Shown piece by piece: positions 3,632 to 46,550 of a stretch of DNA of 61,111 bases. A program made the translations under genes and the position numbers. Within the stretch, counting starts at the first letter, position 1. Each line of letters starts with the position of its first letter. Source of the stretch: a virus (lineage: Duplodnaviria > Caudoviricetes); IMG/VR virus record IMGVR_UViG_3300011436_000001, positions 1-61,111 of that record. One strand, written 5' to 3'. The notes below the pieces were generated by a model. It searched no databases. It was not told where the DNA came from and was given only the letters and a program-made list of their open reading frames with translations.

Positions 3632-4210
3632 TCAATCAACGGCAGCATCGACCGTGTAGTTAGCCGCAAAAAGCGCGGTTAAAACCATCCGGCGTAGAAG
3701 TCCGCGTACAAATACGTCCTGTGATTTTCGGTGATAGCGGTAGCCCCGCCGCGACAGGAAATCGGCGAGGTCTTCAAGCGCGTGATCCGATTGTGCAGAC
3801 TTCCACAGCGCCGCAATCGTCTTCGGCCCGACCTTACCATCGGGCAACAGGCGCATGGTCCGCTGCATCATTTCGATCACGCCGTCCTCTACTGGTTCCG
3901 GGCTAGTCGTGTAAGGCGGCTGGTTCACGACACCATCAAAAATCGCGATGGCCCACATCGCGGGCATCTCTTCGCAGTGCCAGCGCGTCCAGTATTCCTC
4001 TTTATAAATTGCCAGCGCGCCTTCAACCGTCAGGTTCGCGATATCGACATTGGGATGGTAGGCTTTTGCTATGCCGTACTTGGTCAGGCCGCCGGGGTCC
4101 TTCGCGTGATCAGAAAGTACACCTTCACGACGCAGCACGTAATCGACGGCGACGCCAAACGCCGCGTCACCTTTCATGTTCATCAGCGTTGCAGATTTTT
4201 CACCAAACAT
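3632..4210 (-). CDS. Endolysin, glycoside hydrolase family 108 with peptidoglycan-binding segment
   Basis: EGxxSDHxxDPGGxTKYGI, IYKxxYW, FDxxVN and DGKVGPKT motifs. Confidence 0.9.
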   Translation of the reverse strand: MFGEKSATLMNMKGDAAFGVAVDYVLRREGVLSDHAKDPGGLTKYGIAKAYHPNVDIANLTVEGALAIYKEEYWTRWHCEEMPAMWAIAIFDGVVNQPPYTTSPEPVEDGVIEMMQRTMRLLPDGKVGPKTIAALWKSAQSDHALEDLADFLSRRGYRYHRKSQDVFVRGLLRRMVLTALFAANYTVDAAVD

Positions 4211-4212
4211 TT

Positions 4213-4635
4213 TTACCTCCCGAAGAAGCTGGTCGTAAGGATATCAGGTACGGCTGACAACATAAATGCCAGCGATAGTATGAACAGCGTGGCACTGATC
4301 CAAAAAAACTCGCCGGAATGTTTATGAGTAGCGACGCGCATGAAGATCAGCATTCCAGCCATCATCGGCAGCAGTGTCGGCGTTTGAGCCCAATGATTGC
4401 GTAGCCACTCGGTAGACCAGCCAAAATGCGGTCCTTCCAAAGCAATCAAAACGTACAACCGGTTGATAGCGACGCCTAACCAAGTAAGTGAAATTGCCAA
4501 AGCCAGCCAGAAGGCTTCCGAAAATTCGCGGCGGCGGATGCGCCGAAGGCTGTATGGAGCAAAAGCGCAAAATATAAAAAGCCCCCCGAACAACAGCGTA
4601 AAAAATTGCACGTTAAGGATGGTGATCGAACTCAT
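4213..4635 (-). CDS. Multi-pass membrane protein
   Basis: About four hydrophobic segments; start reassigned to MSSITIL. Confidence 0.6.
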   Translation of the reverse strand: MSSITILNVQFFTLLFGGLFIFCAFAPYSLRRIRRREFSEAFWLALAISLTWLGVAINRLYVLIALEGPHFGWSTEWLRNHWAQTPTLLPMMAGMLIFMRVATHKHSGEFFWISATLFILSLAFMLSAVPDILTTSFFGR

Positions 4636-38215: not shown

Positions 38216-38290
38216 TGGAAGAGCGGATGGGGGTCGAACCCACAGTCCCCGGATTTGCAGTCCGGTGCCTCACCATCTGGCTCCCGCTCC
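38216..38290 (-). tRNA. tRNA-Cys(GCA)
   Basis: GGAGCGG/CCGCUCU acceptor, U73, CCGGA-CUGCAAA-UCCGG anticodon arm, GUUCGA T loop, encoded CCA; atypical G8. Confidence 0.88.
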
Positions 38291-40997: not shown

Positions 40998-42422
40998 TTA
41001 GTTTCGCGGCTTGTTGTACGCTTCAGACACCGCGATGTACTTCAACGCCTGTTCGCTGAAGCCGTCGATATGCGTCCACTTGCCATAGCCGATGCCGTTC
41101 TTGTAGTTGGCGACGTTGATCAGGTAATTGCGCTTGCCGAACGCATCGGCCTCGGACGGCGCACCACGCCCGCCGAAATCGCAATCCTGTTCATCGGTCA
41201 CGACGATCAGCCGATCCACATCGCTGGTGTGCGCCTTCACATAATCGCACATCTGCTTGAGGAAGATGCCGCCGCCGCCCAGCTTGTCACCAGCCCTCTT
41301 GATCTCCTCGACCAAGGCCATGCCGCCACGCGTCGAAAGCTCCTCGGTCTTGTGAATACGAGTACCATCACTGCCCGCCGTGGCAAACACGGTACAGTCT
41401 TCCGACATACCCCGACAGATCGCCGCCAGCGCCGCAGCGCCGTCCATACGATCAAGCGCGCTCTTTGCCGACAGACGCCCGCCCATCGAGCCCGACACAT
41501 CGATCACGATGACCGTGTGCCCTGGCATCTTCGGCATCTGCTTCATCGTCGCCTGCATCGCCTTGTCCAACGCATCTTCGAACATCGGCGCAGCACGCGC
41601 CGCCGTGATGAAGCGGAACGGCAGTACACGATCCGCGCCATTGAGCCGGGCCAGGATCGCTTCCTTGACCAGCTTGCGCGGCACGCCCGCCGCTTCCATG
41701 CCCGACAGATTGCGCAGCAACGCCATGTAGCCCAGCTTCTCTTCAGCCATCAGGCGTTCGAAGACCTTCCGCTTATCCTCGCCGCTCGACAGGTTGACTT
41801 CCCAAGTATCCGGGCTTTCCAGTTTGCCGTCGATGAGCTTCTGCCAAACCCTCTGCTGCGCCGTGTCCTTCGGCTTGGCGTGGCACATGAAAAGCACGTC
41901 GCGCAACTTCACAGCCGCGTCGGTGTTGTACTTGCCAAGCTGGTAGGCATCGAACTTGCAGAACGCCGCTGCCAAACCCTTCTTCATCTGCGCCGACAAC
42001 GGGCGCTTGCCGTCCTTCCAATACAGGGCGACAAACTCCGACAACTCATCGGCGCGCTGGATCGTGTCGCGGATCGCAGTGCCAACGATCTCGCCCTGGC
42101 CACGCGCCACCAGTTCCTTCAACAGCAACAGTGGGACGTGGCGCAGATTGTACGCAGACCGCGCTTCGACGGCGAGGTTGGCCAGCGTCGAAACCGGCAC
42201 AGCCTTGGAAGCTGTAGCGATACGCTTGGCGACACTTTCGCCGCCCTCGTAGAACTCGTTTTCCCAAAGCAGACACGACAGGACCGACCGGCGCAGTTGC
42301 GCCTCGGCATCCGGCGCGGACACAGCAACAGCGCCACCGTGCGTCACGTCGTAGTTTGCGCCCTGCCGACGGACCGGCGTACGCTTCACAGCCTTTTTGA
42401 TTTTCGGATTTTTGCGTGCCAT
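40998..42422 (-). CDS. rsr: Ro60 / Rsr ribonucleoprotein (TROVE + vWA domains)
   Basis: LRRSVLSCLLWE..FYE.G, IQRADEL.EF, FDAYQL.KY, TWEV.LS, ALLRNL, LPFRF..A, MIDAS DVSGS, VTDEQ and IDGFSE motifs. Confidence 0.93.
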   Translation of the reverse strand: MARKNPKIKKAVKRTPVRRQGANYDVTHGGAVAVSAPDAEAQLRRSVLSCLLWENEFYEGGESVAKRIATASKAVPVSTLANLAVEARSAYNLRHVPLLLLKELVARGQGEIVGTAIRDTIQRADELSEFVALYWKDGKRPLSAQMKKGLAAAFCKFDAYQLGKYNTDAAVKLRDVLFMCHAKPKDTAQQRVWQKLIDGKLESPDTWEVNLSSGEDKRKVFERLMAEEKLGYMALLRNLSGMEAAGVPRKLVKEAILARLNGADRVLPFRFITAARAAPMFEDALDKAMQATMKQMPKMPGHTVIVIDVSGSMGGRLSAKSALDRMDGAAALAAICRGMSEDCTVFATAGSDGTRIHKTEELSTRGGMALVEEIKRAGDKLGGGGIFLKQMCDYVKAHTSDVDRLIVVTDEQDCDFGGRGAPSEADAFGKRNYLINVANYKNGIGYGKWTHIDGFSEQALKYIAVSEAYNKPRN

Positions 42423-42448
42423 GACTTCCCTCTCTTGCTCCTGGTTCT

Positions 42449-42458
42449 ATTATACAAA
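42449..42458 (-). promoter_or_regulatory. TTGTATAAT promoter-like motif upstream of Ro60
   Basis: Same motif as at 35218, 37438, 49712 and 59212; flanked by CTGGTT/AACCAG inverted repeat. Confidence 0.55.
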
Positions 42459-42476
42459 CCAGACGGGAAGTCAGAA

Positions 42477-42610
42477 CCGGGGATCAAGCGGCAACGGCGT
42501 TCTTGACGTGCTCTACCGCTGAGCTACAGCCCCATAGTGGTGGAGCCGGTGGGATTTGAACCCACGACCACGCGCTTACAAAGCGAAGTATCCGCCACCT
42601 ACGCCACCGA
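42477..42610 (-). ncRNA. Y RNA 1 (YrlA-like) containing a circularly permuted tRNA
   Basis: Terminal Ro-binding-type stem (UCGGUGGCGUAG / UUGAUCCCCGG) enclosing anticodon arm, T arm, closed acceptor stem with CCA, then D arm; adjacent to rsr. Confidence 0.85.
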
Positions 42611-42622
42611 CAACAAACTAAC

Positions 42623-42683
42623 GTCTGGGATTGATCGAGTACGGTTTCATATTGAAGAAGTATCCGCGCTCTGCGCCACAGAC
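42623..42683 (-). ncRNA. Y RNA 2 (minimal Y-like RNA)
   Basis: GUCUGUGGCGCAG...CGGAUACUUC...CCG...UCAAUCCCAGAC, same scaffold as Y RNA 1. Confidence 0.75.
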
Positions 42684-42694
42684 TGAAATTGAAT

Positions 42695-42770
42695 GCCTGG
42701 GATCAATCGTCGGCGGGTATGCCTTTCGGCTCTTCATCCAAAGAAGTATCCGCTAACTTCCACCACAGGC
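42695..42770 (-). ncRNA. Y RNA 3 (small Y-like RNA)
   Basis: GCCUGUGGUGGAAG...CGGAUACUUC...GCCGAAAGGC...CCG...UUGAUCCCAGGC. Confidence 0.75.
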
Positions 42771-42780
42771 GAGGCGGGGT

Positions 42781-43038
42781 TTACGCCTGTTCGATGCGCA
42801 GGTCAAGAGGGTTGTGCGGCTCTTCCGGCAATTCGTTTTCGGAAGTGAAGCGGGAGACACACAGCGCGTGAACGGCCAGCGCGTTCGGCATCATCAACAT
42901 CCACATCGACAACTGGTTGTCCTCAAGATCGAAGGTCAGCAGATTTTCGAGGAAGTCATGCCACAGCCGCAGCACATCTGGAATTTCAACGATGGGGTTA
43001 TGCGTCAGCGGCACGTTGTACACCGCACCCTGATCCAC
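42781..43038 (-). CDS. Small protein, EDNxL motif family
   Basis: FDLEDNQLSMW. Confidence 0.6.
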   Translation of the reverse strand: MDQGAVYNVPLTHNPIVEIPDVLRLWHDFLENLLTFDLEDNQLSMWMLMMPNALAVHALCVSRFTSENELPEEPHNPLDLRIEQA

Positions 43039-43140
43039 ACCGGCCCGCCCTCGCCACAGGGCGGCGGATCGTACATGCGCGCGTTGCCGAAGCCGTCACA
43101 ATCCTTGCAGCCGTTGCCGAATGCTTCGAAGTGCATAGCG

Positions 43141-43473
43141 TCACGTTTCCACTTTGGCCAGCGGGCTATCTCCCGTGCCGCGTCTTTGATTACGTCGGAC
43201 AGCCAAGTTGCTGTCGATGCCGAAGCCCGTCCGCGCTTGTCTCTTGATCTTCGCCCATGTCGCCCGCGCATTAGCTTCAGCCTTCACATATTCCGCATCT
43301 CGCATCGAATAGAAAGGATCACGCCCTTTGCCGAACGATTGGTGCACCGACCGCGCCATCGACCAAGCTACCACCGCTTCTTGCGCCCGTTCAAGCGCCA
43401 CAGTCCACCCATACAGCGGATCGCTTCTGGTGATCTCGTTGGGGTCAGTCAGCGGTTTTGTTGAGCGGGGCAT
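43141..43473 (-). CDS. Hypothetical protein
   Basis: 110-aa ORF. Confidence 0.5.
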   Translation of the reverse strand: MPRSTKPLTDPNEITRSDPLYGWTVALERAQEAVVAWSMARSVHQSFGKGRDPFYSMRDAEYVKAEANARATWAKIKRQARTGFGIDSNLAVRRNQRRGTGDSPLAKVET

Positions 43474-46070: not shown

Positions 46071-46550
46071 TCAGAAATCGCCCTCTGCCACTTGCAGACA
46101 GGTCAGGCCCCGCGCCCGCCACATCTTCACGACGCTGTTGCGATCATCAAAAACCAGATAGGGATCAAAGCCGTCAGCGATGATGCGATCCAGCAATTCG
46201 CCTTTCACAAGATCGTCGGGCCGGTAGTCCTGATCGGCGCGCAAGTACAACTTCTCATAGGCCACGACGTGCTTCCGCAGCCATGCCTCGGTCACGTCAC
46301 GGTATTCCTCGTTGCGCCCGGAACACAAAATGCCAACGGCGCTCATCGAAGATTGCACCGCGTGAAAAGCGTTGATCACCGGCTTGATCGGCTCATCCAA
46401 ATGCAGACCGCTGAAGAACGCGGGCCAATTCTTGTCGGGGCCAACAACGTGATGGCGACGATGCGCGCAATCGGCAATCGTGCCGTCGATGTCACAGATC
46501 ACGCTCAAGCGACGCGCCTTTGGCTTTGCCGGAAAATCATGTTGGCTCAT
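46071..46550 (-). CDS. HAD-family polynucleotide 3'-phosphatase (T4 PseT C-terminal-like)
   Basis: DIDGT, SGR, D.RPD..VK and FDDR..VV.MWR..GL.CLQV..GDF motifs. Confidence 0.88.
   Translation of the reverse strand: MSQHDFPAKPKARRLSVICDIDGTIADCAHRRHHVVGPDKNWPAFFSGLHLDEPIKPVINAFHAVQSSMSAVGILCSGRNEEYRDVTEAWLRKHVVAYEKLYLRADQDYRPDDLVKGELLDRIIADGFDPYLVFDDRNSVVKMWRARGLTCLQVAEGDF

Follow-up and report, generated by a model that had tools for sequence, protein, structure and literature searches.

The locus described here raises the question of what kind of RNA results when a tRNA is encoded with its two halves in reversed order inside a Y RNA, and what such an RNA might do. It lies in the virus record IMGVR_UViG_3300011436_000001 (Duplodnaviria; Caudoviricetes), a linear stretch of 61,111 bp, estimated to be 69% complete, which was analysed over its whole length and is referred to below as the window. 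Three tandem Y-RNA units occupy the minus strand between the preceding open reading frame (ORF) and rsr, the gene for a Ro60/Rsr homologue. Unit 3 (42477-42610), the last of the three upstream of the phage rsr gene, is very probably a YrlA-type Y RNA in which an Rsr-binding base carries a complete, permuted tRNA-mimic head. The element is a further YrlA-type Y RNA in a known class, neither exceptional nor ancestral, and its layout is common to at least 102 phage and at least 81 bacterial sequences.

Layout of the third Y-RNA unit

Unit 3 matches the Rfam YrlA model RF02553 at 42482-42598 with 43.5 bits (E = 1.9e-8 in a local search), the model being aligned end to end. Together with the adjoining Ro60/Rsr gene, this match upholds the Y-RNA identity proposed in an earlier note on this DNA, whose limits for the unit and whose segment positions all proved exact on the minus strand. 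Of the features by which YrlA RNAs are recognised, the following are present: a T arm and then a D arm with an acceptor-like stem-loop between them, a fourth stem-loop, called V, upstream of the T arm (the hairpin at 42585-42573), and a position within about 4 kb of rsr, the gap between the end of the unit (about 42477) and the start of rsr on the same strand (42422) being about 55 nt.

Read 5' to 3' on the minus strand, the unit opens with a basal part (42599-42610) that consists of the terminal helix strand TCGG (42610-42607) and GGCGTAG (42605-42599), which resembles the Ro60 motif GNCGAAN0-1G (Chen et al. 2014). Motifs of this class (GGTGAAG, GGCGAAG, GGCGCAG, GGCGTAG) head every unit in 11 related loci. 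The 5' strand of the variable stem, GTGGCGG (42592-42598), pairs with TTGCCGC (42494-42488) through seven pairs, three of them G·T; in related units the variable stems differ in sequence yet remain complementary. The linker ATACTT (42586-42591) contains the conserved YUAY-type motif, and (T/A)TACTT precedes the hairpin by design in all matches of the pattern search described below, and also in Rsr-anchored loci. Next is the anticodon-arm mimic (42571-42585), composed of CGC (42585-42583), the loop TTTGTAA (42582-42576) and GCGCG (42575-42571), the final CG of which occupies positions 42-43; this arm covaries in relatives. A 5-nt variable loop, TGGTC (42566-42570; AGGTC or TGGTC in 65 of 102 phage relatives), leads into the T arm GTGGG/TTCAAAT/CCCAC (42549-42565; 5/5 stem pairs) and the closed acceptor stem (42527-42548; 7/7 pairs, with G·T at 3:70 and 6:67), both of which also covary. 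The acceptor is built from the 3' strand CGGCTCC (42548-42542), ACCA (42541-42538), the linker CTAT (42537-42534) and the 5' strand GGGGCTG (42533-42527). The next stretch (42507-42526) holds TA at positions 8-9 (42526-42525), the D arm GCTC/AGCGGTA/GAGC (42524-42510; 4/4 stem pairs), A26 (42509) and C27-G28 (42508-42507). The unit closes (42477-42506) with a 3' linker, the 3' strand of the variable stem, the 3' motif TTGATCCCC and the terminal helix strand CCGG (42480-42477).

Re-joined, the two parts give a complete cloverleaf of 71 nt without ACCA, which ARAGORN calls tRNA-Thr(tgt). As the earlier note had read it, the Ro-binding stem leaves between positions 28 and 29, and G3·U70, A73 and CCA are all encoded in the DNA. 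The nucleotides that we take to form the tRNA tertiary contacts (T8, A14, G15, G18-G19, A21, G46, C48, T54-T55-C56, A58 and C61) can all be read in the unit, and C48 of the variable loop can pair with G15 of the D loop. Since the hairpin abuts positions 42-43 without a spacer, while the Rsr stem is connected by linkers of 6 and 12 nt, the hairpin is expected to stack on pairs 27-28:42-43, giving an anticodon stem of 5 bp. Chen et al. (2014; PMC4201824) described a fourth stem-loop, V, that many YrlAs have upstream of the T arm; they equated it with the variable arm and also noted the YUAY motif. The window hairpin appears to be this V stem-loop, and the data favour reading it as the distal part of an anticodon arm over reading it as a variable arm, because no spacer separates it from 42-43, positions 42-43 covary with 27-28, and a canonical 5-nt variable loop follows it.

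The anticodon-arm hairpin in phages and bacteria

Relatives were collected with a pattern in which nothing was fixed but the T loop, the two outer pairs of the hairpin and the linker TACTT; the totals of these scans are lower bounds, and the fractions given hold among the matches listed. In IMG/VR, at least 119 stretches gave 119 distinct matches, of which 3 were truncated, 116 were parsed and 102 were permuted mimics with a 7-bp acceptor and a D arm. A set with one genome per species gave at least 120 stretches and 125 distinct matches, 1 of them truncated, 124 parsed and 81 with the same permuted layout; by their record titles, these bacterial matches come from Actinomycetota, Bacteroidota, Verrucomicrobiota, Acidobacteriota, Pseudomonadota, Bacillota and others. 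The pattern put no constraint on three further pairs. At 31:39, Watson-Crick pairing is seen in 102/102 phage sequences (A-T 41, C-G 39, T-A 14, G-C 8) and 80/81 bacterial ones, at 28:42 in 101/102 and 81/81, and at 27:43 in 100/102 and 77/81, whereas in the phage set slid registers reach 4-33 of 102 and shuffles at most 47-92.

Compensatory change was scored in an alignment of 75 of 141 parsed sequences, all from phages, with linkers of 2-9 nt and taken in order of their identifiers. In this alignment 98.1% of cells are paired, compared with 75.6% in shuffles (0 of 500 shuffles reach the observed value), and the covariation score is 0.625, compared with 0.162 for shuffles and at most 0.118 for slid registers. 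Both sides of a pair have changed in 42 rows at 31:39, 22 at 28:42 and 7 at 27:43. As the pattern prescribed the two outer pairs of the hairpin, their variation is seen only in Rsr-anchored cases with TCA/TGA stems. Several of the related IMG/VR rsr loci carry the hairpin in the same place (CGC/ATGAGGA/GCG in L002, CGA/CAGTGAA/TCG in L005, TCA/CTATTAA/TGA in L009 and TCA/CATTTAA/TGA in L011). The permuted layout with its arm is beyond chance, because it recurs in at least 102 phage and at least 81 bacterial sequences with compensatory changes in both the hairpin and 27-28:42-43; compensatory change across the 75 relatives therefore indicates selection on the permuted fold. ARAGORN calls all of the re-joined cloverleaves tRNAs (102/102 phage, 81/81 bacterial) but does so for 78 of the 102 also when the arm is shuffled, and re-joining is therefore no test of the arm. 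In Infernal's own RF02553 alignment, CGC is paired with the distal 3' strand and the Ro60 stem is placed on the variable stem; we rejected this alignment because related units put the conserved motif one stem further out and because the hairpin covaries in the 75-sequence alignment.

The spread of the arm changes the standing of two proposals of the earlier note. Retention of the arm is not unusual, as it is found in no fewer than 183 distinct YrlA-like sequences, drawn from phages and from bacteria of many phyla, and the same spread does not bear out the idea that unit 3 is an early intermediate in YrlA evolution. The note had allowed that its novelty would vanish if most homologs already kept such an arm. 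This is largely the case, the arm being widespread and the V stem-loop having been described by Chen et al. (2014), although a hairpin-less type also exists. Among 80 metagenome loci chosen by Rsr similarity, a strict parser found a permuted module in 19 (16 distinct); 3 of the 16 have the hairpin and 13 have a continuous stem like that of Salmonella, these 13 looking like one soil lineage. The arm thus appears to be common and conserved yet not universal among YrlAs. At one rsr locus, L460, the hairpin type and the continuous-stem type, the latter with a GAAA acceptor loop, stand side by side. A census pattern that did not require the hairpin (T loop, gap, D arm) caught mainly tandem tRNA genes, with 154 of 174 matches not complementary in the acceptor and a Y-RNA linker in only 1 of 12 "hairpin" cases; a TROVE search in 401 genomes of one phylum gave 5 matches, too few for a census.

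The loop itself also has a tRNA-like signature. T33 occurs in 97 of the 102 phage sequences, a purine at 37 in 101 and A38 in 98, and the bacterial set is alike; position 32 is C in 65 phage loops, A in 18 and T in 18, and positions 34-35 vary freely. Positions 36 and 37 are coupled. T-A is found in 67/102 phage sequences (49.9 expected if the positions were independent) and 45/81 bacterial ones, and G-G in 24/102 (6.9 expected) and 15/81. G-A occurs in 4/102 (20.9 expected) and 3/81, and T-G, expected 16.4 times in the phage set, in 0/102 and 0/81, that is, in none of 183; A36 and C36 occur in 4/102 and 3/102 phage loops. Position 32 is C in 95 of 112 T-A loops versus 15 of 39 G-G loops. Both classes are found on all stem types, and the switch between them therefore occurred many times. 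The window loop, TTTGTAA, belongs to the T-A class and is one of two such loops among the 102. In real tRNAs, U36-A37 and G36-G37 are the contexts of t6A37 and m1G37, respectively, and by analogy the two classes may reflect the determinants of the corresponding enzymes. The V hairpin would then behave as an anticodon-arm mimic in which 36-37 are coupled as U-A or G-G, which looked unreported in the literature searched. The published view is of a YrlA without an anticodon loop; the comparisons made here point to a widespread YrlA type that keeps an anticodon-arm mimic under selection.

Some loci rearrange the same parts. Un-permuted versions, with the 5' acceptor strand and D arm first and ACCA or CCCA last, were found in L002 (1520-1644), L006 (2229-2353) and L039 (about 4090-4217). 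In L002 and L006, a Ro60-type stem with a GAAA loop is inserted at 28/29, CGC/7-nt loop/GCG is kept, and the Rfam tRNA model scores 46.9 and 41.1 bits, respectively, across a 65-nt insert. Judged from their sequences, the RNAs of these three loci represent a natural circular permutation of YrlA. In L004 (2340-2470), the loop of a Y unit contains a complete tRNA-like sequence in normal order (anticodon CAT; Rfam tRNA 53.0 bits), and the Y motif, ...ACTTC, overlaps its acceptor 5' strand.

The array, its surroundings and the acceptor end

Units 1 and 2 have no tRNA-like domain and are YrlB-like. Unit 1 (42696-42769, minus strand; repeat D2; fold z = -2.39) has a CTTC/GAAG hairpin with a 7-nt loop directly after the ATAC motif, and unit 2 (42623-42683, minus strand; direct repeats D1 and D2; fold z = -1.55) folds with a small hairpin besides its terminal helix and variable stem. 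In related loci, many units that lack a tRNA part likewise have a small hairpin, with a CT-NNN-AA loop, after the motif. A 5' block (the GCGGATACTTC region) and a 3' block, (T)TGATCCC, are common to all three units of the window, and the 3' motif (T)TGATCCC or TGTTCCC ends every unit both here and in related loci. Each unit is closed by its own terminal helix, and these helices covary among the units (CCTG/CAGG, GTCTG/CAGAC, TCGG/CCGG). Tandem units with the same 5' and 3' motifs lie upstream of rsr in 10/10 related IMG/VR loci inspected; these come from 11 rsr loci, with L003, which begins inside rsr, excluded from the upstream comparison. The three Y RNAs are probably made from one precursor, and the array probably rides on an upstream transcript. 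Several public freshwater-sediment runs contain this DNA in their assembled contigs, and one contig from an RNA library, in which rsr is not covered, is identical over 42596-42746 (units 1 and 2 and the start of unit 3), a weak hint of transcription.

The rsr gene (40998-42422, minus strand) encodes a 474-aa Ro60/Rsr homologue with TROVE and vWA domains (PF05731, E = 2.2e-19). Homologues of the protein show 45-59% identity to it in 11 IMG/VR contigs and about 50-53% in phages of Caulobacter, Brevundimonas and Xanthomonas; the nearest solved structures are 9L5Y and 9KOP (E = 1.2e-15), which are named as the Ro60 of Thermus phage phiLo (PMC12135203). Between unit 3 and rsr (42422-42473, minus strand), the ribosome-binding site of rsr and the A of its ATG are paired with the sequence just behind the unit through a perfect 9-bp inverted repeat (TGACTTCCC / GGGAAGTCA), which encloses an inner hairpin of 6-8 bp; the region folds at -24.6 kcal/mol (z = -3.11). 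It is possibly a translational control or processing site. Among ten ORFs around the locus, PHROGs gave matches for two only. At 46071-46550 (minus strand), 3.6 kb upstream of the Y RNAs, a 159-aa ORF has matches among families of phage polynucleotide kinases (phrog_505, E = 3.4e-38). No match to RtcB, an Rnl2-type ligase or the CCA-enzyme family was found in the window, a 69% complete record; a search for T4 Rnl1-type ligases gave no match either, but control genomes likewise gave none. The window also has a regular tRNA-Cys(GCA) gene (38216-38290, minus strand; 55.1 bits).

The acceptor end of unit 3 has counterparts in other phages and in bacteria. NCCA directly follows the acceptor 3' strand in 9 of the 102 phage sequences (ACCA in 5), and a dedicated pattern for encoded NCCA found 20 viral stretches. 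The combination of G1-C72, G2-C71, G3·U70 and A73 with CCA is present in the window, L027, L034, L252, L255, L196 and L251; without CCA it is present in L031, L107, L124, L140, L165 and L223 and in three Rsr-anchored soil loci. Acceptors starting with G1-C72, G2-C71 and G3 number 16 of 183, with U70 in 12 and C70 in 3, and A73 accompanies 11 of the 12 U70 members versus 40 of 165 sequences elsewhere. The members, which include distant phage and bacterial sequences, differ at stem positions 4-7, with compensation. G3·U70 and A73, with a free CCA end, constitute the identity rule for alanine; the window DNA has G3·T70, A73 and CCA, and a free end would need cleavage. These sequences suggest a recurrent alanine-type subclass of YrlA, including the window and Caulobacter phage CcrColossus and often with an encoded CCA, which predicts alanylation after RNase P cleavage. 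The subclass looked unreported in the literature searched: the main text of Chen et al. (2014; PMC4201824) mentions neither alanine nor U70 nor a synthetase, and no report joining Y RNA, Ro60 and alanyl-tRNA synthetase (AlaRS) was found in a search that excluded Sim and Wolin (2018), Sim et al. (2020) and the supplements of Chen et al. (2014).

Possible roles and relation to known systems

We propose that the base of unit 3 (the terminal helix, GGCGTAG of the GNCGAA(N)G type and the 7-bp variable stem) would bind Rsr, and that the head would run from the anticodon-arm hairpin through the 5-nt variable loop and T arm to the acceptor, closed by ACCA and CTAT, and the D arm, with pairs 27-28:42-43 closing the junction from which the Rsr-binding stem departs. 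The head could then offer an elbow, an acceptor end and an anticodon-like loop to proteins that recognise tRNAs, and could recruit modification enzymes, RNase P and possibly others to the Rsr particle; alternatively, it could link Rsr with an exoribonuclease in the manner of the known complexes of Ro60, Y RNA and PNPase. We infer that the head has functions beyond Ro60 binding. A role in decoding seems unlikely, because the Rsr stem and its protein project from the anticodon stem. RNase P would cut between 42534 and 42533, and exonucleases would trim the product to CCA, leaving a two-piece RNA as in Mycobacterium smegmatis; we put the chance of this cleavage at about even, given a 7-bp acceptor with G1, T at -1 and an encoded ACCA. 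AlaRS might then charge the end by way of G1-C72, G2-C71, G3·U70 and A73, which may protect the new 3' end, although we consider charging of the cleaved RNA doubtful. A broader scheme is more speculative still and rather unlikely as a whole: that hairpin-type YrlAs are full tRNA mimics whose loop is read by tRNA enzymes and that the alanine-type subclass, once cut by RNase P and charged by AlaRS, provides a tmRNA-like arm on the Ro60 particle. If true, an aminoacylated arm would link RNA surveillance by Ro60 to translation or to the tRNA-quality machinery during phage infection. The anticodon-arm mimic and the alanine identity set would in any case narrow the candidate partners of the head to readers of the anticodon loop, RNase P, the CCA enzyme and AlaRS.

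Several points weigh against this account of unit 3. The YrlA score lies below the RF02553 gathering score of 69, which is reached in none of 18 related phage and bacterial loci scanned (the CcrColossus units score 30.5 and 29.9 bits); the model is narrow. The minimum free energy (MFE) of the 156-nt region 42470-42625 is no better than that of shuffles (z = +0.36), nor is that of the isolated hairpin (z = -0.81), and MFE-predicted folds differ from the comparative structure. GGCGTAG deviates from GNCGAAN0-1G at one place, where T replaces the first A. A scan of 42300-43300 found no promoter-like or terminator-like sites, and the RNA-library contig cannot prove transcription. As to the acceptor end, G·U at 3:70 is only mildly commoner than at other acceptor positions in the whole family, and the alanine-type members may share descent; the association of G3·U70 with A73 is suggestive, not proven, for these reasons. 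Finally, 4 nt separate ACCA from G1 in the window, compared with 6-31 nt in most alanine-type relatives, and so short a linker may hinder RNase P.

Other explanations have to account for the same features. It was suggested in the earlier note that the RNA may be a decoy for anticodon nucleases or tRNA-targeting toxins. As a decoy or sponge for such host enzymes, it would offer the loop as bait, and the Rsr particle would handle the damage. The conservation of U33, purine 37 and A38 (97, 101 and 98 of 102 phage loops) alongside freely varying 34-35 would suit a bait, as would the modal loop CTGTTAA, which has the letters of an Asn-type anticodon loop, and the polynucleotide kinase gene 3.6 kb upstream of the array; bacterial rsr is often beside an RtcB repair operon induced by damaged tRNA (PMC7790460). 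However, neither RtcB nor an RNA ligase family was found in the 69% complete window (the Rnl1-type search being uninformative), a general decoy would not need 36-37 to be limited to two classes, and the chromosomes of bacteria from many phyla contain these loops too, so that the arm is not a phage counter-defence invention; we regard a decoy as improbable. Another possibility follows the model of a dimeric-tRNA origin by Sim and Wolin, which the preprint of Wang et al. (10.1101/312249) cites: unit 3 would be what is left of two tandem tRNAs, whether recent or frozen, kept without a function of its own, the first tRNA having supplied the anticodon arm, T arm and ACCA and the second the acceptor 5' strand and D arm. 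A weak tRNA reading, ACCA, a 4-nt spacer and a perfect tRNA 5' half are what such a relic might leave. Against this, the arm, 27-28:42-43 and the acceptor all show compensatory change over 75 relatives, and the alanine-type end is found again in phage and bacterial sequences that are distant and differ in their stems at positions 4-7, which makes a functionless relic somewhat less probable than a decoy.

A degenerate tRNA-Thr(UGU) gene in normal order at 42614-42538 is what the tRNA finders report: ARAGORN makes a marginal call of tRNA-Thr(tgt) at 42538-42614, and at 42541-42608 the Rfam tRNA model gives 30.4 bits, over its threshold of 29. In this reading two acceptor positions do not pair, and the Rfam alignment marks the D and anticodon stems as non-canonical, whereas the permuted reading has 7/7 acceptor and 4/4 D-stem pairs; the paired ends and the regular D and anticodon stems of a functional tRNA in normal order were not found. 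Its "5' acceptor strand" is the conserved Y-RNA motif, present also in units without a tRNA part. ARAGORN makes the same kind of call on 18/102 phage and 16/81 bacterial YrlAs, so that in 34 of the 183 sequences analysed here the 5' half of such an RNA is mistaken for a tRNA gene by a tRNA finder. The annotated tRNA-Gln of CcrColossus (L263 628-695 = NC_019406 109217-109284) is another such miscall, covering the 5' half of the first YrlA unit of that phage with its Y motif, hairpin, T arm and acceptor 3' strand. We consider a normal-order gene very unlikely. Least probable of all, and scarcely credible, is a two-piece (permuted) tmRNA-like ribosome-rescue RNA. G3·U70, A73 and CCA are as in tmRNA, and the T arm and acceptor give partial matches to tmRNA_permuted RF04321 (29.7 bits, model positions 36-95) and to tmRNA (25.5 bits). 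Both scores are far below the thresholds of 47 and concern the tRNA-like end only; ARAGORN reports no tmRNA, the 134 nt have no tag reading frame or pseudoknot region, and unit 3 has a canonical D arm, which tmRNA is not known to have.

The preferred reading, a YrlA-type Y RNA with a permuted tRNA-mimic head, places unit 3 among several known systems, to which the comparisons add, at the level of the family, a selected anticodon-arm mimic whose positions 32-38 have a tRNA-like signature and a recurrent alanine-type acceptor end, both testable. Two-piece tmRNA and circularly permuted tRNA genes have the order 3' part, CCA, linker, 5' part. Unit 3 shares this gene order and an alanine-type acceptor end with them but has no coding part, and its break lies in the anticodon stem (28/29) with a protein-binding stem. 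As in Thermus phage phiLo, where the Y-like RNAs Yrl1 and Yrl2 lie just upstream of the phage Ro60 gene, Y RNAs here adjoin a phage gene for a Ro60 protein; the phiLo Ro60 binds the phage Y-like RNAs and host PNPase, and the accessible text makes no mention of a tRNA-like head in Yrl1 or Yrl2, the word "tRNA" appearing in it twice and "anticodon" never (PMC12135203). Yrn1 of Deinococcus radiodurans also has a T-arm-like stem-loop, and Chen et al. (2014) model a possible anticodon arm with a 5-bp stem, but the T/D orientation is opposite, the loop has 6 nt, a full D arm and a V arm are lacking, and Yrn1 is said to have evolved independently (PMC4201824).

The YrlA of Salmonella Typhimurium, which is modified by TruB and DusA (PMC4201824; 10.1101/312249), resembles unit 3 in its T arm, closed acceptor, D arm, tertiary-contact nucleotides and YUAY/UA at the junction (10.1101/312249), and in both RNAs the Rsr stem extends from where the anticodon stem lies. 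The Salmonella RNA, with a 6-bp acceptor, lacks both CCA and an anticodon loop, and its anticodon stem runs kinked into the Rsr stem, whereas the window RNA has a separate hairpin with a 7-nt loop. RNase P cleaves M. smegmatis YrlA both in vitro and in vivo; the RNA gains CCA, and its two halves remain bound to Rsr. Chen et al. suggest that such an end could be protected by the addition of CCA and possibly by aminoacylation (PMC4201824). Like unit 3, this Y RNA has a permuted head and a 7-bp acceptor and is encoded upstream of rsr in the same orientation, and a second Y RNA comes from the same precursor; unlike unit 3, it has CA added after cleavage, while the window encodes ACCA, only 4 nt before G1. 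Another parallel in layout is Caulobacter phage CcrColossus (NC_019406, upstream of gp139), whose Y RNA-like noncoding RNAs are credited to Chen et al. 2014 (PMC12135203). There, too, tandem Y units lie upstream of an Rsr, 52% identical to that of the window, and the first unit has CGC/7-nt loop/GCG, G1-C72, G2-C71, G3·U70, A73 and an encoded CCA. It differs from the window in its number of units (five rather than three), in the linker after ACCA, which is 30 nt long and forms a hairpin of its own, and in the loop, which reads ATCTGGA in place of TTTGTAA; this phage would be a tractable system in which to test these ideas about hairpin-type YrlAs.

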